DNA of 64,000 nucleotides. It comes from an uncultured Candidatus Saccharibacteria bacterium (GTDB taxonomy: Bacteria > Patescibacteriota > Minisyncoccia > Phycocordibacterales > SBAW01). Each line of letters opens with the position of its first letter. The stretch's first letter is position 1. The notes beneath the pieces are model-generated. The model was not told where the DNA came from, did not search any database, and worked only from the letters and a program-made list of their open reading frames with translations. The position numbers and the translations under genes are program-made. The DNA lies in contig CAYZZC010000001.1 in NCBI GenBank assembly GCA_964482995.1, forward strand, positions 4,867 through 68,866. The letters are read 5' to 3'. Below, piece after piece: positions 26,154-61,493 of this stretch.

Positions 26154-27059
26154 ATGGCAAATCGTCACTTATCAAGATCCGTAGTGCTCCAAACGCTCTT
26201 TGAGCAGGACATCCGCCAATGCACGAGCGAGATGAGCCGCGAGGCTCTGGTACGCAACGTTGCCGAGTTTGCACCTGCAGCGGGAGACCTGCCGTTTATG
26301 GAGGAGCTTTTGAAGGGCGCTTTGGCACGTAAAAGCGACCTCGATTTAGTGATTGAGAAAGCTGCGCCCGAGTGGCCGATCGAGCGTATCGCGCCGATCG
26401 ACCGCAATGTGCTGCGGCTCGGCCTCTATGAGCTCCTTTTCTCGGATAGGGAAAAGGTGCCTGCCAAGGTTGCTATCAACGAAGCTATTGAACTTGCAAA
26501 AAGTTTTGGCGGCGAGAACAGCGGCCGGTTTGTAAACGGCGTGCTCGGTGCAGTCTACAAAGAGCTCGGCGAGCCCGGCAAAGACGAAACAAGCAAGAAA
26601 AAGAAAGACGTTCCCTATGAAGATATGCCGCAAGAGCGGCTGGTGGGCGCAGTGGTCTACACTCGGCAAGGCAATGATGTGTACATTGCACTTGTGCATG
26701 ACATCTTTGGCCACTGGACGCTCTCTAAAGGCAAACTCACTCCTGAAGAAACCCCTGAAGATGGTGTAGTACGCAAAATAAAAGAAGAGATTGGGCTCAC
26801 AATAACACCCGAGCTTCGCCTAGGAGAAAACGAGTATGTTGCTAGCGACCCTGCTGCCGGCAAGAAACGAAAACATGTGATCTACTTCCTCGCACAATCG
26901 CCGTTTACTGAAGTGCAATTAGCTAAAAAGGGCGGGCTCGATGACGCAAAATGGTTTCGGCTTAAAGATGCGCTAGAACTTAATTTTTATGACGACATGC
27001 TTCCCGTTATCACCAAAGCAGTGCAGCAATTAACCTCTAATACCCCTACCAAAAAGTAG
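26154..27059 (+). CDS. nusB: NusB (transcription antitermination) fused to a C-terminal NUDIX hydrolase domain
   Basis: Residues 1 to about 150 are NusB-like (SRSVVLQTLFEQD...RFVNGVLGAVYKEL). Residues 165-301 carry a Nudix box (GHWTLSKGKLTPEETPEDGVVRKIKEEIGL). Single uninterrupted ORF. Confidence 0.75.
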   Translation: MANRHLSRSVVLQTLFEQDIRQCTSEMSREALVRNVAEFAPAAGDLPFMEELLKGALARKSDLDLVIEKAAPEWPIERIAPIDRNVLRLGLYELLFSDREKVPAKVAINEAIELAKSFGGENSGRFVNGVLGAVYKELGEPGKDETSKKKKDVPYEDMPQERLVGAVVYTRQGNDVYIALVHDIFGHWTLSKGKLTPEETPEDGVVRKIKEEIGLTITPELRLGENEYVASDPAAGKKRKHVIYFLAQSPFTEVQLAKKGGLDDAKWFRLKDALELNFYDDMLPVITKAVQQLTSNTPTKK

Positions 27060-27067
27060 TTACCCTC

Positions 27068-27760
27068 ATGCCGAAAGATTTTAAAGCCTTTGAAGCAAAA
27101 CTAAACCTCTCGTTTAATGATCCAAAACTGCTTCGGCAGGCGTTTACGCATCGCTCATATATAAATGAGCATCGCGGTGAAGCTGGGTCGCACAACGAGC
27201 GGCTCGAGTTTTTAGGCGACGCTGTGCTTGAGCTTATCTCAACCCATTTTTTGTTTGAAAAGTTTCCCAACCACGACGAGGGCGAGCTCACCGCATTTCG
27301 CGCCTCGCTCGTAAACGCGGTCACCTGTGCAGAAATCGCCACTGCGCTCGGGATGAATGATTTTTTACTCCTTTCTAAGGGCGAGAGCAAAGACCACGGC
27401 CGCGCGCGCGGCATCCTTTTGGCAAACGCTTTTGAAGCGCTTATCGGTGCGATCTATCTCGACCAAGGGCTTGATGCTGCGCGCACGTTTATTTCAGAAC
27501 ATCTGTTTCCTAAAATAGACGAAATTGTCCACAAACAGCTGTGGCGCGATGCTAAGTCGGCATTGCAAGAAAAGGTGCAAGAGCACGAAGGGGTGACTCC
27601 GCACTACTCGGTGGTCCGCGAGAGCGGCCCCGACCACGACAAGGAGTTTGTAGTGGGTGTCTATGCTAAAGACCGCTTGCTCGCACAGGGCACCGGCAAA
27701 TCTAAACAAGAAGCCGAGCAAGCAGCCGCCCAAGCCGCTATTGAAGCAAAGGGGTGGTAA
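27068..27760 (+). CDS. rnc: Ribonuclease III
   Basis: ERLEFLGDAVLELI RNase III signature, plus a C-terminal dsRBD. Confidence 0.92.
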   Translation: MPKDFKAFEAKLNLSFNDPKLLRQAFTHRSYINEHRGEAGSHNERLEFLGDAVLELISTHFLFEKFPNHDEGELTAFRASLVNAVTCAEIATALGMNDFLLLSKGESKDHGRARGILLANAFEALIGAIYLDQGLDAARTFISEHLFPKIDEIVHKQLWRDAKSALQEKVQEHEGVTPHYSVVRESGPDHDKEFVVGVYAKDRLLAQGTGKSKQEAEQAAAQAAIEAKGW

Positions 27761-33598: not shown

Positions 33599-36500
33599 AT
33601 GGACGAACTGAATTTTATTTCAGCAAAAGAGGCGGCTAAAATCCTGGGCTATGCTCCAGAGTATGTAGCGCACCTTTGCCGAAGCGGCCAACTCGCTGCA
33701 CAGAGGAAGGGAAATGCTTGGTCGATCAACAAGGTGTCCGTAGAGGCTTTCCAAGAACTGGTTAAGCAAGAACAAGAGCTACGCTCAAAGACACTTTCGC
33801 GCCAGCTTCGTAAAGAGAACAAAGAGAAAAAGGGTATCCCTTTTTTCTTTTCAAACAAATCACTTGTGTCTCGTGTTGCGCTGGGGGCCGCACTCTTTGT
33901 TATGTTTGCAGTTGGAGTGCAAGCAGTTGGTGTCGCTTCAAACAACAATGCTGGTATAACGGCAGCTCTCGGCCAGGTCGAGTCGCCTTTTTTTGGCGCC
34001 AATCCTTTTTCTCTCTTTTCAAATTTGTTTTCAAAATTCTTTGCACAAGCTCCTACAAAAATTACAGCTCCGGATACAAAACCTCTTCCCGTAGCATCTT
34101 CTACCGTAGTTACCAATAACATCAACAACACTACTACGACAAATAATAATACCTACAACACAAACAACACGTACACGTATACAACCGCAGGTGTCTCGGC
34201 AATCGAGTTTGATACAAAAATTAATGGTCTTAGGCAAGAAATATTCTCAAGTATAAACAGTGTGCAGGGGCCATACTCCTCAGGCGGAGTGACCAACAAT
34301 ATTGCTGCTTCGCAAAAGATAGACAAGCTCTCTGGCGTAACAATCAGTAATTCAACGGTGCACAGCCTTTCCGGCCTCACCGATGCCGATGTCCCCGACA
34401 CGATCACTGTCTCTCAATATTTGCCGCTTCTGGGCGGTACGGTCTCGGGCGACCTCACCATAACCGGCACTTGCACAGGGTGCGGTGGAGGCGGCAGCGG
34501 TGACAATGACTGGTCATATTTTAATAACTCCGGCGTGAGGCTTGCCACTACTACTAACCAAGTGCTCATCGGCGGCTCTGCAACCTCAACCTTTGCTAAA
34601 CTCCAAGTGGTTGGCGGCGCAGTGATCGACTTTGCAACAACTACGAGTTTTTTCAGCAGCACCTCCTCCTCGACAGAGTCATACACAACTACGGCGACAA
34701 TTAGCACTGCAAATATCGGGCTAGCAACCACGACACAATTTTTTGGCTCTAACCTTTCAGTGTGTCAGGGCGGTAATCTACTCACGTGGAATGGTGGCCT
34801 CTTTGGTTGTGCGGCAGACCAAACTGCAACAGGTGCTGCCAACCCGTTTACCTGGAGCAACAACTATGGCGTCATCTCTGCAGCAACCACCTCACCACTT
34901 TGGGCGCAGAACGGCCTCTTCGCCTCCTCGACCTCGCACTTCGCAAATGGTGACTTTGCGGGAACTCTTGGAGTAGGCACTTCAACACCCTTCGCACTCC
35001 TCTCGGTACACGCCACCTCCACCACCAACTTCGCAACACTCTTTGCCGTCTCTTCAACCTCTGCGGGTGGGGGATCTGATACCACACTGTTTGTTGTTAA
35101 CAAGAATGGCAATGTTGGGATTGGGACGAGCTCTCCAAGTTATCAGCTTACGCAAAAGTCGGCCGCGGCAGAAGAAAAATCTTCACTTGGCGCCGAGCTG
35201 CTTGATTCAACCAGTTGGACCTCAACCGGGTGGACAGGCGACTTTAATGTCGGTTTTACCAACACCGGAGGCAACACCAACAACCTTTCGCGCACCACCA
35301 CCACCTTAACTGGCGTCTACTACTACATTACATTCACTATATCAGGGATGACCACCGGCAGGCTCAATGTTTCATTAGGATACGCGACTACCACGGATGA
35401 TGCCGGAGGTTACTACCAAAATGGCTCTTACACTTTCGGCCCCAGCCCCACCGTCTCAAACGGGCCTATCCAATTTATCCCTAGCTCGGGGTTCGATGGC
35501 ACAGTCTCAGCCATTTCAATGAAATTGGTTTCTGCATATAACCCCACCTACGCCATCCTCGACTCGACCGGCGCCTCGACCATTGAAACTCGCTCCTCGA
35601 CCGCCTCGCTTTTCAACACATTTATAGGCGTTGGTGCAGGACGCCTCAACTACAATGGATCAATCAACACCGCCCTAGGCTACCAAGCGCTCTACAGCAA
35701 CACCACCGGCGTCGACAACATCGCCCTCGGCTACCGGGCGCTCTACAGCAATACCACCGGCACTGACAATGCAGGCATCGGCCCCCAGGCGCTCTACAGC
35801 AACACCACCGGCTATCGAAACACCGCAATCGGCTATCAAGCGCTTAATGCAAATACTGTCGGAGGCGAAAACACAAGCGTCGGCTTTTCCGCTCTCAAGA
35901 CAAATACTACTGGCGCAGCTAACACTGCCGTAGGAGAGAACGCTCTTTTAAGAAATACTACAGGCTCATCTAACACGGCTATTGGCCAACGAAGCCTCTA
36001 CAGCAACACCACCGGCACCAACAATGTAGCCAACGGCACTATAGCGCTCTACAGTAACACTACCGGCTCCAACAATACCGCCAGTGGTTATCAAACGCTC
36101 TATTACAACACCACCGGTTCCGGCAATGTGGCCAATGGTCTACAGGCGCTCTTCAACAACCTATCCGCTACTAATACCGTTGCTGTTGGGTACCGATCCG
36201 GCTACGGCCTGGGCGGGCGATACTACAACCTGGGCGGTACATATCTCGGGTATCAAGCAGGCTACGCTGCTGCAAACTCGTCCGACTACAACACCTTCCT
36301 CGGCTATCGGGCTGGTGAGAATGTTGCCACTGGCGCTGGCAATATAATCATCGGCGCCAATATTGCTGCTACCTCAAGCACTGCCACCAACTCGCTCAAC
36401 ATAGGCAACTTGCTCTATGGGACAGGCGTCTATTCATCCTCTGGCACTTCCCCCGCAACCTCTTCTGCTCCGGTAATTAACGGTATGCTTGGCGTAGCTT

Positions 36501-39500
36501 CTTCTTCGCCCTTCGCTAAATTCTCTATTCATGCAAACAATGGGGGCACTAACACCACGCTCTTTGCAATCGGTTCATCAACACAAACCTCTACCACGAC
36601 GCTCTTTAAAATCGACAACACGGGTTCATCGACACTCCTTGGCATCGCTTCCTCAACCGGCCTGATAGTCTCTGGTCTCAATGCAGCAAGTTGCGACCTC
36701 AAAGGTGACGTCAACGGTGCTATCTACTGCGGTACAGACGCCACAACTGCTGGAGCAGCGGCATTTACGTGGGAGGATAACTTTGCTCAGATCTCTGCGG
36801 CAACAACATCGGCAATCTGGGCAAAGAACGGCCTTTTTGCTTCTTCTACCTCACGCCTCTCCACCACGACGTTCATTGGCTCAGTCGGTATTGGCACCAC
36901 CACCCCCGCATCTCTCTTCTCTATCAACGGCGTCGCCAACTTCCAAACTGGCACCTCCACTATTTATGAAAACCTCAACGTCAGAGGCCAGCTCAAAGTA
37001 GGCAATGACTCTATCTATCTCAACGGCGCAGCTACCTCCACCTTTACTAAAGGCCTCGACATCGCTGCAGGTTGCTTCTCTATCGGAGGTACTTGTGTGG
37101 GAGGCAGTGGTTCATCTCCAGGCTACATACTCTCTTCTATATATTCAACCACCTCTCCCGGCACCACCACTATATCTGTCACTGGCTCTGCAGGCTCTGC
37201 CGCAAGCTTCTCTGCCGCCGTGCTCACGCTTCCATCTGATACAGCCTATTACGTTGTTGAAGTGTGGGGGGGTGGTGGAGGTGGAGGAGACGGAGGCGGT
37301 AACGGCGGTGGCGGTGGCGGTGGCGGATATTCAAAAGAAACTTTTACTACTACGGGTCAGCGGTATTACACTGTTGGTGCTGGTGGTGCTGGTGGTACGA
37401 CCGGATCCGGTTCATCAGGCGGTTCATCCTGTTTTGGTACAAATGCAATAGCGTGTGCCTCGCCCGAACTTCAGGCAACAGGAGGTAGTGGTGGGGGTGG
37501 TGGTGGCGGTGGAAATGGTGGCGCTGGAGGAACCGGTTCAGGAGGAAACGTTAACTTTGTTGGCGGAGCAGGAAGCGACGAGCTTTCAGAAGCGGTAGCA
37601 GCCGCGGACAATCATTCTGGTGTAGGCGGTGATGCTGCTGGAGGTGGTGGCGCAGGAGCAAAGGGTGTGTCTTCTAATGGGCAAGCCGGTGATGCCGGCA
37701 CTGCCCCTGGGGGTGGAGGTGGGGGCGGAGAAGATACGGACGGCACCTCAGGCGATGGTGACGGCGGAGCCGGCGGCTCAGGCGGTTTCATCATCTACGT
37801 CTACACCCCATCGGGCAACGTCGTCACAGGCACCATCAACTCCGGCACCGCAGGCCAAGTCACCTACTACGCCGCAGACGGCACTACCATCTCCGGCACC
37901 TCAACACTTTTCATTACACCAACCGGCAACGTCGGTGTCGGCTCCACCTCACCATTCTCCAAACTTTCTATCCACGCAAACAATGGCGAGACAAACACTA
38001 CGCTCTTCGCTATCGGTTCTTCAACCGCGTCGGCAACCTCCACACTCTTTATGGTCAACGCCCAAGGCAGCGTCGGCATCGGGACATCGACACTTAATGC
38101 AAAGTTTGTGGTATCAAGCTCTGGCTCTACTGCAAGTGTATTGCAGATTGATCGCTCGGGTGCAAGCACGCAAGCTAACCTTGAGTTTCTCTCTAATGGG
38201 GCGCGAAAATGGGCCATCTATAAAACCAACGCTTCAGAGAATTTGAGCATCTATAACTATACTATTTCTGCTGATGCACTCACTATCGCATCTACGAGCA
38301 ATAACATCGGCATCGGCACCTCCTCACCGTGGCGCAAACTTTCAGTAGAAGGTTCTTCTGACCTTGGTATCAACGCACTCGCTGGCTTCTTCACCGCCAC
38401 CACCTCTACCGCATCTGTATTTCCATACGCAAGTACGACGATGGTAACCGCAGCAACCGCCAGCTCCACCAACTTAATCGTCTCCTCAGCAGGCGGAGCA
38501 GCAGGCTGTGCAACCTTCTCCACCAACGGCACCATCTCAAACACCGGCACTGCCTGCGGTTCAGGGTCTGGCACCTTCTCATTCACCCCCACCACCAACT
38601 TTGGTGTCGACGTGAACTCCACTTCAACCCCTCTTTGGTTCACCCAAGGCCTCTTCGCCTCCTCAACCTCACGCCTCTCCACCACCACCTTCATTGGCTC
38701 AGTCGGTATTGGCACCACTACCCCAGGTTCACTCTTCTCTATCAACGGCGTCGCCAACTTCCAAACTGGCACCTCCACTCTCTACGAGAACCTCAACGTC
38801 AGAGGCCAGCTCAAAGTAGGCAATGACTCTATCTATCTCAACGGCGCAGCTACCTCCACCTTTACTAAAGGCCTCGACATCGCTGCAGGCTGCTTCTCTA
38901 TCGCAGGGACGTGTGTAGGGGGTAGCGGAAGCTCCGGTACTCTTGATTCAAAAGTTTTTGCAACAACGACCACAGGCACTACTTCTGTAATATTCACCGG
39001 TGCCGTTGACAGCGATCCTTCATTCTCTGCGGCAGTCCTTACTCTTCCATCGAATACTGCATTTTATGTGGTTGAGGTGTGGTCTGGCGGCGGTGGTGGC
39101 GGTGGTGACCCTGGTGGCAGTAACGGTGGCGGAGGCGGTGGCGGAGGCGGATATTCACGCGAAACATTCACTACAATTGGCCAGCGATATTACACTGTAG
39201 GCTCTGGCGGTCTAGGCAACACAGGCTCTGGCGCAGGAACTGCTGGCGGTTCATCCTGCTTCGGCACCAATTCAACTGCTTGCACTTCACCAGAGCTTTC
39301 AGCTACAGGAGGAAATGGAAGTAGTGCTGGCGGCGGTGGCGGCGCAGGTGGGGTTGGGTCTGACGGTAATGTGAATTTGACTGGACAAGAAGGAGTAAGT
39401 GGCTCCGCCGCCAGCGGTGATGGTGGAACCGGAGCATTTGGTGGGGTGGGAGGCGCGGGAGGAGACAGCGGAGCCACTGGTATCGTTCCAGGCGGCGGCG

Positions 39501-42049
39501 GCGGCGGAGAAATTGACGCTGGCAGCGGCAATGGCGGCAATGGCGCAGCTGGCCAAATTGTCATCACCGTATACACCCAAGGTTCTGCACTCTCAAGCGG
39601 CACCATCAACACCGGCACCGCAGGCCAACTCGCCTACTTTGCCGCAGACGGCACCACAGTCTCCGGCACCTCAACACTTTTCATTACACCAACCGGCAAT
39701 GTCGGTGTCGGAACAACATCGCCATATGCTCTCCTCTCTGTAAACGCAGCATCTACTTCCGTATTACAGACCCTCTTTGCCATCGGCTCCTCAACCAACA
39801 ATGGAGCAACCTCAACACTCTTTGTAGTCAACGCCAACGGCAGGGTGGGGATCGGGACAACGAGCCCAGCGAATCTCCTAGCATTGGCGGCAACTGCTTC
39901 GACAGCACTGTCACTCGACTTTACTGACAATACGAGTTTGTCGCAGATTCTTTTCAATCAGTCGGGTACAAACTATGGTTTTATAAACCAACTAGGATCA
40001 AGTTTTTCAGATGCTACGCGTGCGGGGAATCTTGAGATAGGCTCAACACTTGGCGCGGGAGGAGTCGCATTTCGAACTGGTGGTGTCCAGCGCATGCTTA
40101 TAAATTCTTCGGGCAACGTCGGTGTCGGCTCCACCACTCCATATGCTCTCCTCTCTCTCAACGCAGCCTCAACCTCAGTACTCACCACCCTCTTTGCGAT
40201 CGGTTCCTCAACCAACAACGGCGCAACCTCGACACTCTTTTCTATCTCAAACACGGGCTCTACCACTGCCTCAAACGGTTTCAATATCACCAGCGGTTGC
40301 TACGCCATAAACGGCGCGTGTATTGGCTACACGGTAAAGCTCGCGGCGATCTACGCGACATCAAGCTCTGGCACCACAACCGTTGCCTTTACCGGAGCCG
40401 CAGGCAGCGCGCCGAGTTTTTCTGCGGCCGCGCTCACGCTTCCTAAAAATACTTCGTACTATGTCGTTGAGGTGTGGGGAGGTGGCGGCAATGGTGGTAA
40501 TACCTCAAACAACAATACTAATAAAACCGGCGGTACCACTTGCTACAGCAACAACGCTGTCGCTTGCGCATCTGTCTTGCTCCAAGCTACAGGCGGTGCC
40601 GGCGGTACAGATGCGCAGATAAATGGTATCGGTGGTGCTGGCGGTGTTGGGTCAGGGGGTGATGTAAATATGATTGGCGAAGGGGGTGGTAATGGTTTTT
40701 TTGGTGTTAATGCTGGTTCCGCCGATGTAAATTCATTGGGAGGAAAAGGAGGTTCTGCGGCTGGAGGTGGCGGAGTCGGAGGCGCTGGTGGTACAGGAAA
40801 CCCAGCCGCCGGTGCCGATGGTAAGGCTTTTGGCGGCGGCGGCGGCGGCGATGGCGATAGCACCGCTGCCAGTGGTGTAGGAGGCGGTGGTGGCGGCGGC
40901 GGCGGGTATTCTAAAAAACTTATTTCCAATAGCGCTGCAGCAACCTTTACTATTGGTGCTCCTATCGGTGCCAATGTCGGTGCCTCCAACGGTGGTGCGG
41001 GAGGTGTTGTCATCACCATATACGCCACCTCCTCTGCCAACGCGGCGGGCAACGACTACGCAGAAATGTTCCCCGTGAGCAACCCTATTATCGGGGCGGG
41101 GGATATTGTTGCTGTCGACACTGGCATGCCAGTTTCAATGAAGCTGGCGCGGGCAGGCGACACCGCGCTTGCGGGCGTTATCTCGACTGAGCCGGGGCAG
41201 GTGTTGGGGGACATCAATGCAAGCGGCATGCGCCCGGTCGCGCTTTCTGGCCGCGTGCCAGCAAAAGTAAATCTTGAGGGCGGCGAAATCAAAATTGGTG
41301 ACCGCATCGCGCTCTCGTCTCTGCCAGGTGTCGGCAAGAAGGCGAATGCGTTTGAAGACTCAGTTGGTATCGCGATTGAAAACTATACTGTCAATTCGAC
41401 CTCCGGCACCGTGATGGTGTTCCTCGATTTGCAACGGGGGATCGATGTAGAGGCGGTCGGCCAGGTGCTCCTCGGGCTTCCAGTTGTAACTATCAGCACC
41501 AGCACGAGCCCGGTAGTTACTGTCTCGGAAACTACGAGCACCAGCACAGCGACGACCACAGAAACAATTTCAACCACCACTCCTTCCTCCGCATCATCTA
41601 CGCCGCCATATGTATTTGCGACGAGCTTCCTCACGCAGCTTGCGCATATATTTACCAGTTGGTTTGCAAGCGCGGGTAACGGGATCGCAGATTTATTTGC
41701 AACCACTATTCATGCTGAAACAATCTATGCAAAGTCGGTACACACCGAGGAGTTGTGTGTGGGGAGTGTCTGTGTGTCACAGGAGCAGTTTATGTCGTTG
41801 GTGCAAGCGGGCGGCATTAGTACCAGCACAAGCGCGCCCACTCCGCCACCTCCTACTGAGCCAACATCAACCCCGCCTGAGCCCGCACCAGAGGCCGCCA
41901 CAACCACACCTATAATAGAAGGGTCGACCCCAACAGAACCAACTTCTGAACCAGCTCTGCCGGTAGAAACTTCCTCCGAGCAGCCTATTATGCCTGCAGA
42001 TATACCTACAGAGCCGCCAGCACCCGTTGTTGAGCAAGCACCATTATAA
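33599..42049 (+). CDS. Giant (2816 aa) membrane-anchored surface protein with N-terminal cytoplasmic HTH, one TM helix and modular repetitive ectodomain
   Basis: Uninterrupted 8451-nt ORF. Residues 1-60 form an excisionase/MerR-like HTH (ISAKEAAKILGYAPEYVAHLCRSGQLAAQRKGNAWSINKVSVEAF), and residues 90-113 a TM helix. Then Ser/Thr/Asn/Gly-rich beta-solenoid-like regions with about 20 copies of a 14-residue NTAxGxxALxxNTTG repeat. Three large modules each have a poly-Gly block (VEVWGGGGGGG...GGYS.ETFTT.GQRYYTVG). A conserved C-terminal domain (DYAEMFPV...GDIVAVDTG) is followed by a Pro/Thr-rich tail. Confidence 0.8.
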   Translation: MDELNFISAKEAAKILGYAPEYVAHLCRSGQLAAQRKGNAWSINKVSVEAFQELVKQEQELRSKTLSRQLRKENKEKKGIPFFFSNKSLVSRVALGAALFVMFAVGVQAVGVASNNNAGITAALGQVESPFFGANPFSLFSNLFSKFFAQAPTKITAPDTKPLPVASSTVVTNNINNTTTTNNNTYNTNNTYTYTTAGVSAIEFDTKINGLRQEIFSSINSVQGPYSSGGVTNNIAASQKIDKLSGVTISNSTVHSLSGLTDADVPDTITVSQYLPLLGGTVSGDLTITGTCTGCGGGGSGDNDWSYFNNSGVRLATTTNQVLIGGSATSTFAKLQVVGGAVIDFATTTSFFSSTSSSTESYTTTATISTANIGLATTTQFFGSNLSVCQGGNLLTWNGGLFGCAADQTATGAANPFTWSNNYGVISAATTSPLWAQNGLFASSTSHFANGDFAGTLGVGTSTPFALLSVHATSTTNFATLFAVSSTSAGGGSDTTLFVVNKNGNVGIGTSSPSYQLTQKSAAAEEKSSLGAELLDSTSWTSTGWTGDFNVGFTNTGGNTNNLSRTTTTLTGVYYYITFTISGMTTGRLNVSLGYATTTDDAGGYYQNGSYTFGPSPTVSNGPIQFIPSSGFDGTVSAISMKLVSAYNPTYAILDSTGASTIETRSSTASLFNTFIGVGAGRLNYNGSINTALGYQALYSNTTGVDNIALGYRALYSNTTGTDNAGIGPQALYSNTTGYRNTAIGYQALNANTVGGENTSVGFSALKTNTTGAANTAVGENALLRNTTGSSNTAIGQRSLYSNTTGTNNVANGTIALYSNTTGSNNTASGYQTLYYNTTGSGNVANGLQALFNNLSATNTVAVGYRSGYGLGGRYYNLGGTYLGYQAGYAAANSSDYNTFLGYRAGENVATGAGNIIIGANIAATSSTATNSLNIGNLLYGTGVYSSSGTSPATSSAPVINGMLGVASSSPFAKFSIHANNGGTNTTLFAIGSSTQTSTTTLFKIDNTGSSTLLGIASSTGLIVSGLNAASCDLKGDVNGAIYCGTDATTAGAAAFTWEDNFAQISAATTSAIWAKNGLFASSTSRLSTTTFIGSVGIGTTTPASLFSINGVANFQTGTSTIYENLNVRGQLKVGNDSIYLNGAATSTFTKGLDIAAGCFSIGGTCVGGSGSSPGYILSSIYSTTSPGTTTISVTGSAGSAASFSAAVLTLPSDTAYYVVEVWGGGGGGGDGGGNGGGGGGGGYSKETFTTTGQRYYTVGAGGAGGTTGSGSSGGSSCFGTNAIACASPELQATGGSGGGGGGGGNGGAGGTGSGGNVNFVGGAGSDELSEAVAAADNHSGVGGDAAGGGGAGAKGVSSNGQAGDAGTAPGGGGGGGEDTDGTSGDGDGGAGGSGGFIIYVYTPSGNVVTGTINSGTAGQVTYYAADGTTISGTSTLFITPTGNVGVGSTSPFSKLSIHANNGETNTTLFAIGSSTASATSTLFMVNAQGSVGIGTSTLNAKFVVSSSGSTASVLQIDRSGASTQANLEFLSNGARKWAIYKTNASENLSIYNYTISADALTIASTSNNIGIGTSSPWRKLSVEGSSDLGINALAGFFTATTSTASVFPYASTTMVTAATASSTNLIVSSAGGAAGCATFSTNGTISNTGTACGSGSGTFSFTPTTNFGVDVNSTSTPLWFTQGLFASSTSRLSTTTFIGSVGIGTTTPGSLFSINGVANFQTGTSTLYENLNVRGQLKVGNDSIYLNGAATSTFTKGLDIAAGCFSIAGTCVGGSGSSGTLDSKVFATTTTGTTSVIFTGAVDSDPSFSAAVLTLPSNTAFYVVEVWSGGGGGGGDPGGSNGGGGGGGGGYSRETFTTIGQRYYTVGSGGLGNTGSGAGTAGGSSCFGTNSTACTSPELSATGGNGSSAGGGGGAGGVGSDGNVNLTGQEGVSGSAASGDGGTGAFGGVGGAGGDSGATGIVPGGGGGGEIDAGSGNGGNGAAGQIVITVYTQGSALSSGTINTGTAGQLAYFAADGTTVSGTSTLFITPTGNVGVGTTSPYALLSVNAASTSVLQTLFAIGSSTNNGATSTLFVVNANGRVGIGTTSPANLLALAATASTALSLDFTDNTSLSQILFNQSGTNYGFINQLGSSFSDATRAGNLEIGSTLGAGGVAFRTGGVQRMLINSSGNVGVGSTTPYALLSLNAASTSVLTTLFAIGSSTNNGATSTLFSISNTGSTTASNGFNITSGCYAINGACIGYTVKLAAIYATSSSGTTTVAFTGAAGSAPSFSAAALTLPKNTSYYVVEVWGGGGNGGNTSNNNTNKTGGTTCYSNNAVACASVLLQATGGAGGTDAQINGIGGAGGVGSGGDVNMIGEGGGNGFFGVNAGSADVNSLGGKGGSAAGGGGVGGAGGTGNPAAGADGKAFGGGGGGDGDSTAASGVGGGGGGGGGYSKKLISNSAAATFTIGAPIGANVGASNGGAGGVVITIYATSSANAAGNDYAEMFPVSNPIIGAGDIVAVDTGMPVSMKLARAGDTALAGVISTEPGQVLGDINASGMRPVALSGRVPAKVNLEGGEIKIGDRIALSSLPGVGKKANAFEDSVGIAIENYTVNSTSGTVMVFLDLQRGIDVEAVGQVLLGLPVVTISTSTSPVVTVSETTSTSTATTTETISTTTPSSASSTPPYVFATSFLTQLAHIFTSWFASAGNGIADLFATTIHAETIYAKSVHTEELCVGSVCVSQEQFMSLVQAGGISTSTSAPTPPPPTEPTSTPPEPAPEAATTTPIIEGSTPTEPTSEPALPVETSSEQPIMPADIPTEPPAPVVEQAPL

Positions 42050-43669: not shown

Positions 43670-44401
43670 TTGTGGTATTTTGCGTACGTGAATTTCCACG
43701 TCGTAACCCTATTTCCTGAAGTGATTGAGGCGTACACGAGTGCGTCTATTTTGGGCCGTGGAAAAAAGGAGAAGAAATTTAGCGTAAAGACGTATCAGAT
43801 GCGCGACTTTGTTACCAACAAGTGGGGCAAGGTAGACGAGCGCCCCTACGGCGGCGGGCCCGGCATGGTGGTCCAAGCCGAGCCGGTCATTAGGGCAGTT
43901 GAAGCAATCCAGAAAAAGATTCAGAAAAAGAAAAGCATAAAAGAAAAAACAAGAGATAAGAAAAGTATGATATATCATACTTTTCTTATGCCAAAGGTGA
44001 TTATTACTTCGGCTGGGGGGAAGCCCTTGACTAACGCTTATGCTAAGTCGCTTCTTAAAAATAAAGACGTCATTATTATCTGCGGCCGCTACGAGGGGAT
44101 CGATGCTCGCGCTAAAAAGGTTTTAAAAGCAGAGGAGGTTTCGGTGGGAGACTATATATTGACTGGTGGTGAGGTGCCGGCGCTTGCGATAATCGACGCC
44201 GCTGCGCGGCAGATCCCTGGTGTGCTCGGCAAGTTTGAGTCGCTCGAGGAGTCTCGTGTAGCTTCCCACGACACCTATACTCGGCCTGAGGTTTTCATAT
44301 ATAAAGGAAAGAACTATCGCGTACCCAAGGTCCTCCTCTCCGGCAACCACGCCAAGATGGACAAGTGGAAGGAAAAGAAGCGCAGTAACCCGGCCTCATA
44401 A
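43670..44401 (+). CDS. trmD: tRNA (guanine37-N1)-methyltransferase
   Basis: VVTLFPEVIEAY...RPYGGGPGMV...ICGRYEGIDAR...GDYILTGGEVPALAIIDA are TrmD SPOUT motifs. Start may be the GTG at 43688. Confidence 0.88.
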   Translation: MWYFAYVNFHVVTLFPEVIEAYTSASILGRGKKEKKFSVKTYQMRDFVTNKWGKVDERPYGGGPGMVVQAEPVIRAVEAIQKKIQKKKSIKEKTRDKKSMIYHTFLMPKVIITSAGGKPLTNAYAKSLLKNKDVIIICGRYEGIDARAKKVLKAEEVSVGDYILTGGEVPALAIIDAAARQIPGVLGKFESLEESRVASHDTYTRPEVFIYKGKNYRVPKVLLSGNHAKMDKWKEKKRSNPAS

Positions 44402-44657: not shown

Positions 44658-51509
<6,852 letters not shown>

Positions 51510-56062: not shown

Positions 56063-56129
56063 ATCCTTGTAGTATAAGCTTTTTTAACCACTCTCAAAAT
56101 ATATATGGCCTTTGTTATACTGGCCTTAT

Positions 56130-56951
56130 ATGGCACCTAAGAAAGACCTCCCGATTAAGCACTGGAGCCACTCTTCTTTAATGGCTTTTTTGCGCAACCC
56201 GCTTGCCTGGTATAAGCGCTATGTTGAGGAGATATACGACACCCCTTCTGGCCCCTCTGCGGTGGTGGGGAAGGCGGCGCACGTGGCTCTGCAGCACTTT
56301 TATGGGGGGATCGGGAAGGAGGGGGCCACCGCACTTGGGCTCGAGGCTCTGCGCGCAGTACACGACTTTGAAATTAATTTTGGCAAAGCAAAAACACGCA
56401 GCGCAAAAAAGAAAAAGCGCGAGCATATGGAGCGCGAATATGTGCAGGTTGTCGGTTTTTATCTCGCCCGGCCGCCAAAACACAAGGTGCTCGGGGTGGA
56501 GGTAAAAGGGCTGGTTGAGGTTGAGGGGCTGCCTCTGCCGCTTAAAGCTGTTTCTGACCTGGTGGTGCGCTCAAAGGTAGACCCTCGCGGGGTCGATATT
56601 GTAGACCACAAGTTTGTCGATGCGTTTAGCTCCACGCGCGAGCGTAAGGCACTCTTCGTGATCCAAGCGATTTTTAACTACTACACGGTTAAGGAAAAAT
56701 TTGGCAAGCCTGTGCGGCGCTTTGTGGTGTATGAGTGCAAGAAGTCAAAAAATGCCGATGGCAGATCGCAAATGCGCCGCTATGTGATCGACTATCGCGA
56801 GCACAAAGAGGAGTTCTCTCTCTTCCACCGGCTGATCAAAGACGCGACAGCCGAGATAGCACGCGAGCGTATCTACTTACCTAACCCCTCTGATATGTTT
56901 GAGGGGGAAAACTCTTTCGACATCTATCGTCTGGGTTTGATAGAGGAGTAA
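56130..56951 (+). CDS. PD-(D/E)XK nuclease superfamily protein (RecB/Cas4-like core, no Fe-S cysteines)
   Basis: N-terminal WSHSSLMAFLRNPLAWYKRY. GKAAHVALQ, D...VDIVDHK (D/ExK) and QAIFNYY (QxxxY) motifs. Confidence 0.55.
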   Translation: MAPKKDLPIKHWSHSSLMAFLRNPLAWYKRYVEEIYDTPSGPSAVVGKAAHVALQHFYGGIGKEGATALGLEALRAVHDFEINFGKAKTRSAKKKKREHMEREYVQVVGFYLARPPKHKVLGVEVKGLVEVEGLPLPLKAVSDLVVRSKVDPRGVDIVDHKFVDAFSSTRERKALFVIQAIFNYYTVKEKFGKPVRRFVVYECKKSKNADGRSQMRRYVIDYREHKEEFSLFHRLIKDATAEIARERIYLPNPSDMFEGENSFDIYRLGLIEE

Positions 56952-57017
56952 CAAAAGAAAATTCCTTGCTCCGGAGAGATATACGGCACTCCTGCGCAAG
57001 AAATATTTCTTTTGTTA
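56949..57017. repeat. Long hairpin element with conserved core CGGAGAGATATACGGCACTCCTGC (copy 1) spanning both convergent stop codons
   Basis: Arms GTAACAAAAGAAA.../...TTTCTTTTGTTAC flank a 26-nt core that recurs at 60447-60472. Confidence 0.75.
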
Positions 57018-57719
57018 CTGGGTGGTTGCTGGAGTATCGCTCACGCCTTCGAGTACGGCATCAATCGCTGCACGCATAGAGTCGTACGGCTGGTTGCCGT
57101 TTAGAGTCACTGCCTCATTGCCAACCATCACCAGTGTAAACGGTGTGCCCTGAGCGCCGAGCTTAATAGCCTCCGTGTACGAGTCGGCTACTTTTTTAGC
57201 AAATTTGTTGCTCGAGAGGCAGGCGTTGAATGTCTCTACATTAAGCCCAACATCTTTGGCAATGACGGGCAGTTGCGCCAGGTCGAGACCATTGTTTGAG
57301 GGGGTTACCTCAAACACCCGGTCGATAAATTTAAAGTAAGCGGTGTTGCCTCCTTGATCGGCTGCGCACTCCGCCGCTTGAGCCTCTTGCGGAGCCTTAG
57401 GATGGACGCTTGCGAGTGGGAAGTGGCGCGAAACCCACGCAACCTTGCCCGATGCGCCGTAGAACTCCATAACCTTATGCATCGTTGTTTGGAATGTCTT
57501 GCAGTGCAGGCACTCAAGGTCATAGTACTCGACTACCTTAACTGGTGCGTCAGGGTTGCCGAGGATGTGGTCGACAGCTGGGTCATAAGGACGAGCAGTG
57601 ACCCCGCTTGTGGAGCCGCCTGGTGTAGGGACGCTCGTTTTACCAACCAAGAACACTGCTCCTGCTATAAGCACACCTGCGACGACGATAGTAATAGGCA
57701 ATACGTATTGGCTGTTCAT
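57015..57719 (-). CDS. DsbA-like thiol:disulfide oxidoreductase, membrane-anchored
   Basis: N-terminal TM helix. Thioredoxin-fold CxxC (YYDLECLHCKTFQ). DsbA-like length and helical insertion. Confidence 0.7.
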   Translation of the reverse strand: MNSQYVLPITIVVAGVLIAGAVFLVGKTSVPTPGGSTSGVTARPYDPAVDHILGNPDAPVKVVEYYDLECLHCKTFQTTMHKVMEFYGASGKVAWVSRHFPLASVHPKAPQEAQAAECAADQGGNTAYFKFIDRVFEVTPSNNGLDLAQLPVIAKDVGLNVETFNACLSSNKFAKKVADSYTEAIKLGAQGTPFTLVMVGNEAVTLNGNQPYDSMRAAIDAVLEGVSDTPATTQ

Positions 57720-59623: not shown

Positions 59624-60427
59624 ATGTCAGCGCTAGAGAATTTGTCCGGCGAGGTGCTCAACCTCTATAAACAGATAGGCGAGACCCCCCGCGAGCGCCT
59701 AGAGCGCCTGCGCCAGCAAAAGCCCTACTACGCGCACGAGGTGCTCTCCTATGCAGGGCGGCTCGACCCGATGGCCGAGGGCGTCTTGTTGTGCCTGGTT
59801 GGCTCGGCCAACAAAAACCGGGAGGCGTATCTCGACATGGCCAAGGAGTATACGCTCGATGTGCTGTTTGGCTTCTCTACCGACACCTACGATGTGCTCG
59901 GGCGGGTGATGGACACGGGAGATGTTTCAAAGATACGCCCCAGTGCAATTAAAAAAGCATTAAATGAGTTTCGCGGCACGCTGTCGCAAGAGTATCCGCC
60001 GTTTTCCTCGAAGACTGTGCAGGGGAAGGCGCTGTTTGAGTGGGCGCGTAGCGGGGCGCTAGCTTCGATCATGCTCCCGCAGCGCACGGTGATCGTCTAC
60101 GACATTACTCTTGAGGGTGTGTACAAGATTTCTGAAAGTGATCTTTTTTCATATATCGAAGAGCATGTAGAAAAGGTGCAGGGAGATTTTAGACAAGAGG
60201 AGGTGATGCGGCTCTGGAAGCGCAAACTGCACAAAGAAACTGCTCCGCCAAGCGGCAAGGCGGGGCGCGAGTTCCCCTGCGCCACGATCAAGATCTCCTG
60301 CTCCTCTGGCACCTACGCGCGCTCAATAGCCAACGGGCTGGGGAAGGAGCTTGGCGTCCCCGCGCTTGCGCTCCATATCCTCCGCAACAAAGTGGGGGAG
60401 TTTAGTGTCGAAAACTCCCTTAAATAA
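59624..60427 (+). CDS. truB: tRNA pseudouridine(55) synthase
   Basis: AGRLDPMAEGVLLCLVG carries the catalytic Asp in the TruB motif. PPFSSKTVQGKALFEWAR. Confidence 0.85.
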   Translation: MSALENLSGEVLNLYKQIGETPRERLERLRQQKPYYAHEVLSYAGRLDPMAEGVLLCLVGSANKNREAYLDMAKEYTLDVLFGFSTDTYDVLGRVMDTGDVSKIRPSAIKKALNEFRGTLSQEYPPFSSKTVQGKALFEWARSGALASIMLPQRTVIVYDITLEGVYKISESDLFSYIEEHVEKVQGDFRQEEVMRLWKRKLHKETAPPSGKAGREFPCATIKISCSSGTYARSIANGLGKELGVPALALHILRNKVGEFSVENSLK

Positions 60428-60497
60428 AATAATAAAAACCCTTTGTTACGGAGAGATATACCGCACTCCTGCACAAAGGGTTTTTATTATTTTATTT
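60422..60497. repeat. Long hairpin element, copy 2: perfect 25-bp inverted arms flanking the conserved 26-nt core
   Basis: AAATAAAATAATAAAAACCCTTTGT-core-ACAAAGGGTTTTTATTATTTTATTT. The arms are exact reverse complements. It lies between convergent truB and nrdB. Confidence 0.8.
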
Positions 60498-61493
60498 TTA
60501 CCAATCCAACTCTCCTGTCTTATATTCTGTAACGCGGGTTTCGAAGAAGTTTTTCTCCTTTGGCATGTCCGCTATCTCACTCATCCAAGGAAATGGGTTG
60601 TCGACATGGTACTGGCGCTCTAGCCCAATGCGCTCTAAACGCCTGTCGGCCACATGCTCGACATATTGCTTAACCGAGGCAGGGGCTAGGCCAAGCACCC
60701 CGCGTGGCAGTGCATCGTCTGCATATTTTTTCTCAAGCTCAACGCCCTTTTTAATATTGTCGACAAGTGTTTGCTTAAACTCAGGTGTCCAGATCTCCGG
60801 GTTTTCTTGCACAATAGTGTTGATAAGGTCGGCACCAAAGGCAAGGTGTACCGACTCGTCGCGAAGGATAAACTGGAACTGCTCGCCCACCCCCACCATG
60901 CGGTTTTTGCGGAGCATCGAGAGCATCATGGCAAACCCCGCGTAAAAGAAGATCCCCTCCATGATCACATAAAAGCCCACGAGGTCGTGCACAAACTTCT
61001 GGATGTTCTCGGTGCCTTCAGTAGTAAAGTTTGGGTCAAACACCGATTTGGTGATGTTAACCACAAAGTCATCCTTCTCTTTGATAGAGGGGATAGTGAG
61101 GTACATATTATAGATCTCGTCTGGGTCGAGGCCGAGCGTGTCGCAGCTGTAGATAAAAGTGTCGGTGTGTACCGCCTCCTCGTAGGCTTGGCGCAGGAGA
61201 TATTGGCGCGCCTCAGGGTTGGTGATGTGGCGATAGATCGCGAGCACGAGGTTGTTGGCAGTGAGAGACTCGGCGGTAGAGAAAAAGCCGAGGTTCCAGA
61301 GGATCATGCGGCGCTCGTCTTCGCTAAGGCCTCCTTGCTTCTTCCAGAGCTCAACATCTTGCTGCATGGAGACCTCCTCTGGCACCCAGTTGTTCGCCAC
61401 GCCTTTTTTATAGTGCGTGCGCGCCCATGGATACTTCATCGGTAATATTTTGTTCGGGTCGGTAGTCGACGCGCCGTTTATGATGCCAGCCAT
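60498..61493 (-). CDS. nrdB: Ribonucleotide reductase class I beta subunit
   Basis: Ferritin-like di-iron ligand helices (EAVHTDTF, ESVHLAFG). 331 aa. Confidence 0.9.
   Translation of the reverse strand: MAGIINGASTTDPNKILPMKYPWARTHYKKGVANNWVPEEVSMQQDVELWKKQGGLSEDERRMILWNLGFFSTAESLTANNLVLAIYRHITNPEARQYLLRQAYEEAVHTDTFIYSCDTLGLDPDEIYNMYLTIPSIKEKDDFVVNITKSVFDPNFTTEGTENIQKFVHDLVGFYVIMEGIFFYAGFAMMLSMLRKNRMVGVGEQFQFILRDESVHLAFGADLINTIVQENPEIWTPEFKQTLVDNIKKGVELEKKYADDALPRGVLGLAPASVKQYVEHVADRRLERIGLERQYHVDNPFPWMSEIADMPKEKNFFETRVTEYKTGELDW

Follow-up and report, generated by a model that had tools for sequence, protein, structure and literature searches.

A dispersed family of palindromic hairpins with a conserved tip in genomes of the Candidate Phyla Radiation

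The 64,000-nucleotide (nt) stretch of DNA analysed here (contig CAYZZC010000001.1 of assembly GCA_964482995.1, positions 4,867 to 68,866; hereafter the window) carries two long hairpins that share one short core at their tip, and the same core crowns unrelated hairpins in other genomes of the Candidate Phyla Radiation (CPR). The family defined by this core is dispersed: its members are present or absent as whole units at orthologous sites, lie next to unrelated genes, occur in both orientations and are found in frame within genes. Aligned copies indicate that the tip is conserved across two CPR classes and that the copies inside open reading frames (ORFs) are translated. The explanation that we favour, and on which we are evenly divided between acceptance and doubt, is that of a mobile or selfish palindromic element, comparable to the Rickettsia palindromic element (RPE) and the repetitive extragenic palindrome (REP), that has been co-opted as a bidirectional terminator. 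Both window hairpins are copies of this low-copy family of dispersed palindromic DNA in CPR bacteria (Parcubacteria/Paceibacteria and Saccharibacteria), and under the proposal the element would be selfish, mobile or copy-pasted DNA of the RPE/REP kind that spreads through a candidate mobilising activity. Intrastrand template switching, selection for pairing on both strands, or the two together would maintain its perfect arms at the level of DNA, and a copy that lands between genes would serve for intrinsic termination in both directions and would probably be a substrate of RNase III. A full-text literature search returned no published description of such elements in CPR; the family is apparently undescribed, with the RPE as its nearest analogue.

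Two window hairpins share a 24-nt core

A pattern scan of the whole window located the core CGGAGAGATATACNGCACTCCTGC twice, both times on the + strand, at 56972-56995 and 60449-60472. There is no third copy in the window with up to three mismatches allowed, and none of 100 shuffles of the window yielded any match to the core. The original prediction, made from the letters of the window, had described the shared core as 26 nt long; its presence at both sites is borne out, but the string common to the two copies measures 24 nt, with 23 identical positions and one G/C position. The parts of the two hairpins are listed below, with the strand given for the cores.

56947-57019: hairpin copy 1, whole palindrome
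56947-56969: left arm of copy 1, AGTAACAAAAGAAAATTCCTTGC, including an A-run and the stop codon, TAA, that ends the + strand gene
56972-56995, + strand: 24-nt core of copy 1, in which the 20-nt family core GGAGAGATATACGGCACTCC spans 56973-56992
56996-57019: right arm of copy 1, GCAAGAAATATTTCTTTTGTTACT, with a T-rich run and, read as TTA, the stop codon TAA that ends the - strand gene
60422-60497: hairpin copy 2, with perfect 25-nt arms and a 26-nt centre
60422-60446: left arm of copy 2, AAATAAAATAATAAAAACCCTTTGT, in which the stop of TruB occupies 60425-60427 and an A5 run 60434-60438
60449-60472, + strand: 24-nt core of copy 2, in which the 20-nt family core GGAGAGATATACCGCACTCC spans 60450-60469
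60473-60497: right arm of copy 2, ACAAAGGGTTTTTATTATTTTATTT, with a T-rich part homologous to the T-tract of an ordinary terminator in relatives

As had been claimed, the arms differ between the copies yet pair within each of them, and this includes the core-proximal stems. The arms of copy 2 (60422-60446 and 60473-60497) are indeed perfect 25-nt reverse complements; those of copy 1 (23 and 24 nt) are imperfect, in that a 1-nt bulge and one C.A mismatch interrupt their 22 Watson-Crick pairs. The long hairpin is the predicted fold of each strand in either copy, at z-scores between -4.1 and -10.4. The predicted tip consists of a 4-bp GGAG/CUCC helix (in copy 1, GGAG at 56973-56976 paired with CTCC at 56989-56992), a purine-purine mismatch and then a G-C pair that closes an 8-nt loop. 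The small hairpin that the core had been expected to form corresponds to this tip helix, which is present in the folds of both strands. The view that neither structure is a chance palindrome also stands, both from the shuffles and from the presence of the same core on hairpins at many loci.

The core caps unrelated hairpins at many loci

The 20-nt core GGAGAGATATAC(C/G)GC(A/G)CTCC, or a close variant of it, sits atop unrelated hairpins at about 20 other loci on Parcubacteria and Saccharibacteria contigs. Scanning one genome per species with the pattern GGAGAGATATACNGCACTCC gave four loci in the Parcubacteria metagenome-assembled genome (MAG) Gr01-1014_56 and one in a Saccharibacteria MAG, where a second copy with one mismatch lies 2 kb away. 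A metagenome scan added loci L008, L010, L014, L015, L022 and L025, with two copies on opposite strands and 100 nt between them in L022, and hairpin scans of the collected loci revealed variants in L033, L048 and L049. A covariance model built from 15 copies recovered these three variants and added one in L047; in the window it found no copy beyond the two. Identical sequence is present in independent assemblies from ENA, Logan and NCBI. The search of relatives for further copies and for conservation of the core, which had been proposed at the outset, thus turned up many further copies together with a conserved ortholog.

In an alignment of 20 copies, GAGAGAT..AC and the 3' CTCC are invariant. 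The tip has the form GGAGAGAT(R)(W)AC, followed by 3 or 9 variable nt and then by (A)CTCC, with a 4-bp GGAG/CTCC helix and an A.A or A.G mismatch. In most copies the internal-loop bases flanking the core are either CTCC/TGCA (most Parcubacteria) or CAC/TAAA (the Saccharibacteria type), and the whole unit measures about 63-80 nt. The arms are copy-specific in every copy and almost perfectly complementary in most; in most of them the 5' side is rich in pyrimidines and bears an A4-5 run, to which a T4-5 run corresponds on the 3' side. The outer arms of different copies are unrelated, and only the inner 5-8 bp are alike, within sub-families only. One such inner stem is common to window copy 2, L002 and L014, which are non-orthologous loci, and another to L003 and L010, with 39 identical nt.

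The neighbours of the copies include SMC/RNase R, S18/EF-P, release factor/S2, FKBP, RNase J, GyrB, a sigma-like HARE-HTH protein and an SLT-domain protein. These are unrelated housekeeping genes, and the possibility that the copies mark a regulon of flanking genes is therefore unlikely and was rejected.

On the Saccharibacteria-type contigs L001 (2484-2718), L025 (396-438) and L015 (264-291), the core hairpin is followed by long perfect palindromes that lack the core. These have arms of up to 21 bp and form intergenic palindrome clusters with the core hairpin.

Copies inside genes are read through in frame

Two copies with the core described above (core type 1) lie within DNA-repair genes, one coding for a MutY-like HhH-GPD glycosylase (L003) and the other for the 3-methyladenine glycosylase Mpg (L010). 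Both ORFs pass through the hairpin in the same frame, giving LRSGEIYRTPARK, with 39 identical nt. In MutY the insert site is directly before the LPGVG helix-hairpin-helix motif. The homologs P0005, P0011, P0020 and P0026 are without an insert, P0008 and P0045 have the usual short linker, and the remaining MutY homologs carry several types of insert at the same site; four of these inserts could be read as DNA, and each of the four is a long hairpin, nearly perfect, with A/T runs. Two MutY genes whose arms are unrelated share an identical second core type, GGAGAGATGAACGGGAGCCCTACTCC, and this core recurs unchanged in a third genome, in an intergenic hairpin with 30-bp arms. In Mpg, a minimal 5-residue linker is present in 59 of the 116 parseable homologs among those listed, and the other parseable ones have, at that position, inserts of 9-61 residues that fall into at least six families by sequence. 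About 20 of the Mpg inserts make up an RSGE(I/M)..TP family that grades from core type 1 to core type 2, and the Mpg gene of L049 contains two adjacent in-frame hairpins of different families.

Note that the MutY copy of L003 resembles the Mpg copy of L010, and that the L003 genome's own Mpg (P0250) carries the other core type. This match, together with the sharing of core type 2, indicates that the sequence of the element does not track its host gene. The A5/T5 runs are kept even in the ORF copies. Excision of these copies as introns was considered and is unlikely; all are in frame and stop-free, and the hairpins measure 74, 72, 66 and 70 nt, not all of them multiples of three. Judging by the homologs compared, palindromic insertions evidently have their hot spots, throughout Parcubacteria, at the loop sites of Mpg and MutY.

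Other families of in-frame hairpin inserts at the Mpg and MutY loop sites are represented by ..ALKAAKDP.., ..EKVLGSPISRRPLRGG.. and ..RKKRVGLGLAARSA.. (L049 10404-10478; L033 10291-10360; proteins P0252, P0255, P0265, P0277, P0267 and others). The MutY gene of L047 (10001-10822) has an 'empty' site at codons VLAHEQA, with a perfect 16-nt palindrome, CTTGCTCATGAGCAAG, where homologs have the hairpin; it could be a remnant left after loss of the centre, or a pre-insertion target.

A related case is present in the window itself, where the TrmD ORF (43670-44401) contains a perfect 34-nt palindrome at 43956-43989, ATAAGAAAAGTATGATA followed by TATCATACTTTTCTTAT, which is in frame and has AAAAG/CTTTT runs. 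This palindrome (region 43953-43992) coincides with an insert of about 20 residues, given that query residues 80-108 stand against 9 residues in solved TrmD structures, and it looks like a tip-less relative of the MutY and Mpg hairpin inserts. Palindromes inserted in frame into permissive loops of proteins seem to be a general trait of these genomes.

Orthologous sites differ by the whole unit

At the copy-1 junction, the window and its relatives L045 and L006 have exactly 63 extra nt (56952-57014 in the window) that correspond to the hairpin and that L046 lacks. In this last relative, whose TruB is 83% identical, the stops of the PD-(D/E)XK and DsbA-like genes abut (..AGT TAG TTA CTG..). At the copy-2 junction, relatives have a gene of 46-48 codons and an ordinary terminator, AAAAGCCCCGGCA TTCG TGCCCGGGCTTTTTCTTTTTATATTTACC; the window is without this ORF, and hairpin copy 2 stands in its place. 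The T-rich outer part of the right arm of copy 2 is homologous to the native T-tract and the left arm is its perfect mirror, and these two observations suggest that the palindrome may have grown by copying one side onto the other. The idea that arms are inverted copies of the target fits copy 2 and parts of the MutY inserts but fails for copy 1, for which the empty site of L046 is without any arm sequence. Differences of the same kind are seen elsewhere: the SMC/RNase R junction holds the element in L004 and another gene plus an ordinary terminator in the window, and in L001 a copy comes between the genes for release factor and S2, which in the window overlap. The 58-nt insert of L010 is flanked by a possible 5-bp direct repeat, AAAGC; at the copy-1 junction, comparison with the empty site of L046 gave no recognisable target-site duplication.

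Window copy 1 and its ortholog in L006 are identical at 69 of 73 positions (94.5%), versus about 77% for the flanking genes on both sides, and two of the four differences constitute one compensatory change from C-G to T-A. The excess of identity over the flanks argues that the orthologous copy 1 is under purifying selection in place. Several samples contain the same strain at 100% identity, and in a variant at 98.9% the hairpin is unchanged; among those samples no recent insertion or deletion event was seen at the strain level.

The ORF between TruB and the ribonucleotide reductase small subunit (RNR-small) gene in relatives (L045 10868-11008, L046 6055-6201) has a promoter-like TTGAC..TATAAT upstream.

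The window copies as putative bidirectional terminators

At each of the two sites in the window, the hairpin takes up the space that separates two convergent stop codons; the genes concerned are as follows.

56112-56951, + strand: PD-(D/E)XK nuclease family gene, ending in copy 1
57015-57719, - strand: DsbA-like thioredoxin-fold gene, ending in copy 1
59624-60427, + strand: TruB gene, ending in copy 2
60498-61493, - strand: RNR-small gene, ending at copy 2

The palindrome of copy 1 encloses both stops (PD-(D/E)XK, 56949-56951; DsbA-like, 57015-57017). In copy 2 the TruB stop (60425-60427) is inside the left arm, and the RNR-small stop (60498-60500) only abuts the right arm. The claim that both copies lie between convergent stops and overlap them is therefore correct in full for copy 1, and for copy 2 on the TruB side.

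Both copies fill the slot that is held at other convergent junctions by ordinary GC-rich terminators. Like intrinsic terminators, they present an A-run, a stem, a loop, a stem and a T-run between convergent stops, with a U-tract after the stem-loop on both strands. The inner hairpins, which are followed by T-runs, have folding energies of -12 to -23 kcal/mol, with -12 to -17 given for the two window copies, and these values fall inside the span of -8 to -31 covered by the ordinary terminators at the other convergent junctions of the window. However, the ordinary terminators of the window have GC-rich stems and loops of 3-7 nt, whereas the CPR element has AT-rich stems, arms that extend beyond the A/T runs, a conserved centre of 26-28 nt and members inside MutY and Mpg ORFs. 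A terminator consensus scan called neither window copy. Going by their layout and folding, the two copies are plausible predicted bidirectional intrinsic terminators, and stems of at least 20 bp such as these are probably RNase III substrates; the window encodes an RNase III gene at 27068-27760. The predicted terminator or RNase III role would explain purifying selection on a copy that is better conserved than the genes around it.

Pairing across copies and strand

When pairing is scored across copies, 87.6% of cells are paired and 16 of 21 pairs show double changes, a statistic that lies above every shuffle (0 of 500 as high) and above every slid control. Since there is no homology between the arms of one copy and those of another, all that this establishes is that every copy is a hairpin. 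The 'covarying stems' offered in the original prediction as evidence for an RNA fail for the same reason, since the two copies are paralogous with unrelated arms and their stems do not reflect covariation by descent. The only true compensatory change between orthologs is the one that separates copy 1 from L006.

The arms contain 324 Watson-Crick pairs versus one G.U pair on the core strand. Their 11 A.C mismatches on the core strand are G.U/G.T on the opposite strand, a bias that corresponds to about 9 versus 1-3 independent events. In its purity the pairing resembles a palindrome at the DNA level, or the product of selection on both transcripts, and not an RNA helix on one strand. In tandem-gene contexts, 5-6 copies are in sense orientation and two are antisense (L033 456-533 and L047 1146-1232), and there is no strict rule that ties orientation to transcription.

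Comparison with known systems

RPEs are about 100-150 bp long, are conserved along their whole length, and occur both between genes and in frame within housekeeping genes, where they are translated as loop peptides; we know of no transposase for them. They were reportedly described by Ogata et al. in 2000. The CPR family is like them in consisting of small palindromes in a reduced-genome, host-dependent bacterium, located both in intergenic positions and, in frame, inside protein genes whose homologs include empty sites. It differs in belonging to another lineage, in conserving only a tip of about 12+5 nt, in its 63-80 nt units with copy-specific arms, and in its mostly terminator-like A/T runs.

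REP sequences, with the related REPINs and bacterial interspersed mosaic elements (BIMEs), have conserved GTAG/CTAC stems, occur in hundreds of copies, are associated with the Y1 transposase RAYT and are essentially never found in ORFs. BIME/RIP units consist of inverted repeats around a conserved non-palindromic centre, and RIP/RIB units have a central site for integration host factor (IHF). The likeness lies in palindromes at the 3' ends of genes, often between convergent genes, and in the role of REPs as mRNA stabilisers or terminators. In contrast, the arms of the CPR element differ in every copy, there are two copies in 64 kb, and some copies lie in ORFs; no RAYT gene was found among most of the larger window ORFs, which were scanned with Pfam. 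MITEs (miniature inverted-repeat transposable elements), for example the Correia elements of Neisseria, have conserved terminal inverted repeats, target-site duplications and variable centres. They too are short non-autonomous hairpin repeats in or near genes that provide terminators or processing sites, but the CPR element is the reverse in its anatomy, with a conserved centre and unrelated outer arms, and no clear duplication was found.

The attC sites of integrons have conserved end boxes (R''/L'' and L'/R', RYYYAAC/GTTRRRY), a variable centre and an arrangement in cassette arrays. This identity was rejected: the CPR pattern is reversed (conserved centre, variable ends), its ends do not fit RYYYAAC/GTTRRRY, and there are no arrays and no integrase nearby. 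TIGR stem-loop arrays, known from CPR and phages, consist of tandem units next to a Tas (Nop-domain) gene, with loops that contain box C/D and two spacers of 8-12 nt (PMC12045711). Variable palindromic stems, conserved short loop motifs and presence in CPR genomes are common to both (PMC12045711), but the CPR hairpin copies are solitary and their loops of 18-28 nt have no box C/D pair. The window ORFs scanned include no Tas or Nop-domain gene.

Discussion

CPR genomes are tiny and tightly packed, most of these bacteria are uncultured, and little is known of their mobile DNA, their terminators or their lineage-specific protein inserts. In the family described here, palindromic elements of small size are seen to spread, or to persist, across CPR classes; such elements may supply bidirectional terminators where convergent genes otherwise abut, and they repeatedly add loops of 20-60 residues to MutY, Mpg and probably TrmD. 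In annotation, odd 'inserts' in CPR proteins can be traced to these hairpins, which are not to be labelled small RNAs or riboswitches.

Three readings had originally been offered for the window hairpins. That of a REP- or MITE-like mobile hairpin fits best, because copies occur at unrelated loci, within ORFs in frame and in both orientations, come and go as whole units and have Watson-Crick arms; that of a terminator is plausible as a prediction, and the case for a structured RNA loses its argument from covariation. Several points weigh against a mobile element, however. No transposase is present among the window ORFs scanned with Pfam, and neither a master copy nor a clear target-site duplication was found, save for the possible AAAGC at the L010 insert. 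Copy number is low (two in 64 kb), and the arms differ between copies, which is the opposite of the conserved arms or ends of REPs, MITEs and RPEs. The empty site of L046 is compatible with gain or with loss. Conservation of the tip over two CPR classes and purifying selection speak more for a function than for selfishness alone, the core seems to be 100% identical in part through the ascertainment effect of exact-pattern scans, and the opposite-strand mismatch bias (11 versus 1) is not accounted for.

The conservation of a loop on freely changing stems raises the question of what recognises the tip, and a role of the tip in binding RNA or protein is a candidate only. It is central to the least unlikely of the alternatives, a functional structured RNA module, whose tip (the GGAG/CUCC helix, the purine-purine mismatch and a loop of 8-14 nt) would bind a conserved CPR protein or RNA. 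Shown on terminator or 3'-untranslated-region hairpins and on a few coding hairpins, such a tip would steer 3'-end formation, stability or translation-coupled termination. This would suit a tip that is conserved on completely turned-over stems, an orthologous copy that is better conserved than its flanks and has one compensatory pair, and A5/T5 runs that are retained in ORF copies; the ORF copies are translated through, however, and the middle of the loop varies in both length and sequence. Sense orientation to the upstream gene in 5-6 of the 8 tandem-context copies is in its favour, but two are antisense to both neighbours, and the neighbouring genes are unrelated. The pairing statistics, which exceed all shuffles and slid controls, can be cited for it, but G.U pairs are almost absent on the core strand and the wobble-compatible mismatches are on the opposite one. 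Nor does any Rfam family match: with Rfam 15 the window gave only tRNA at the gathering threshold, and six copy-bearing loci gave, at E<=1, only spurious miRNA and snoRNA matches far below gathering scores.

The purely Watson-Crick arms and the independence of orientation from transcription agree with a recognition site at the DNA level, which we also rate as unlikely. Here the asymmetric core would be bound or cut by a CPR protein, either as double-stranded DNA at the centre of a cruciform or as a folded single strand, and the palindromic arms would exist to extrude or present it. The IHF site of BIME/RIP or Correia elements, the substrates of HUH/Y1 enzymes and single-strand origins are parallels. 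A conserved non-palindromic centre between variable inverted repeats is in keeping with such a site, and the strand-biased mismatch spectrum is compatible with one folded DNA strand. The window ORFs scanned offer no candidate protein, though, the core is unlike the IHF, parS, Ter and attC consensus sequences, and copy number and spacing suggest no role in chromosome organisation. This explanation overlaps with that of a mobile element, in that a tip-recognising protein could be the mobilising enzyme. By comparison, ordinary independent bidirectional terminators with loops that are alike by chance, or an assembly artefact, are hardly credible. The position of both window copies at convergent junctions and their T-runs would be expected of ordinary terminators, but this explanation is refuted by the shuffles, none of which gave a match, by the same core on many unrelated hairpins, also in ORFs, and by identical sequence in the independent assemblies.

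A bolder proposal, and in our view a doubtful one, is that the conserved tip is the handle of a dedicated CPR system. This might be an enzyme acting on a single-stranded DNA fold that copies hairpins into gene ends and permissive loops, or a conserved tip-reading protein by which the expression of housekeeping and DNA-repair genes is linked with termination, with processing by RNase III or with translation. If true, the hairpins would represent a new CPR class defined by its loop and not by its stems, and the recurrent hairpin inserts of MutY, Mpg and TrmD would be the footprint of that system.

Other identities considered and further features of the window

The exact 20-nt core is also found in Acidobacteria-type loci (L005 1783-1802; L009, L011, L016, L019 and L020), where it sits without a hairpin at the 3' end of a maturase ORF (..TWERYTALLRR..), and a link with group II introns was rejected. 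By our own calculation about 4 chance matches to the core pattern are expected in that collection, and an Rfam search found no intron domains near the CPR copies; we judge this 20-mer to be a coincidence multiplied by intron mobility. K-turns, box C/D, archaeal bulge-helix-bulge introns, attC, IHF, parS and Ter sites were dropped, since their sequence or anatomy is unlike that of the element, and DNA-uptake sequences were dropped for a density that is far too low. There was no similarity to phage records, and a scan of viral contigs gave one chance match, without a hairpin.

The window as a whole is a housekeeping stretch of a Parcubacteria-type chromosome. At 44658-51509 it has a single ORF of 2283 codons, the L045 ortholog of which has the Pfam domains Rpb2 (beta) and Rpb1 (beta'), which indicates a probable fused rpoB-rpoC gene. 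At 26154-27059 a NusB domain and a NUDIX hydrolase domain are combined in one ORF, and a giant ORF of 2816 codons at 33599-42049 is followed by a strong ordinary terminator.

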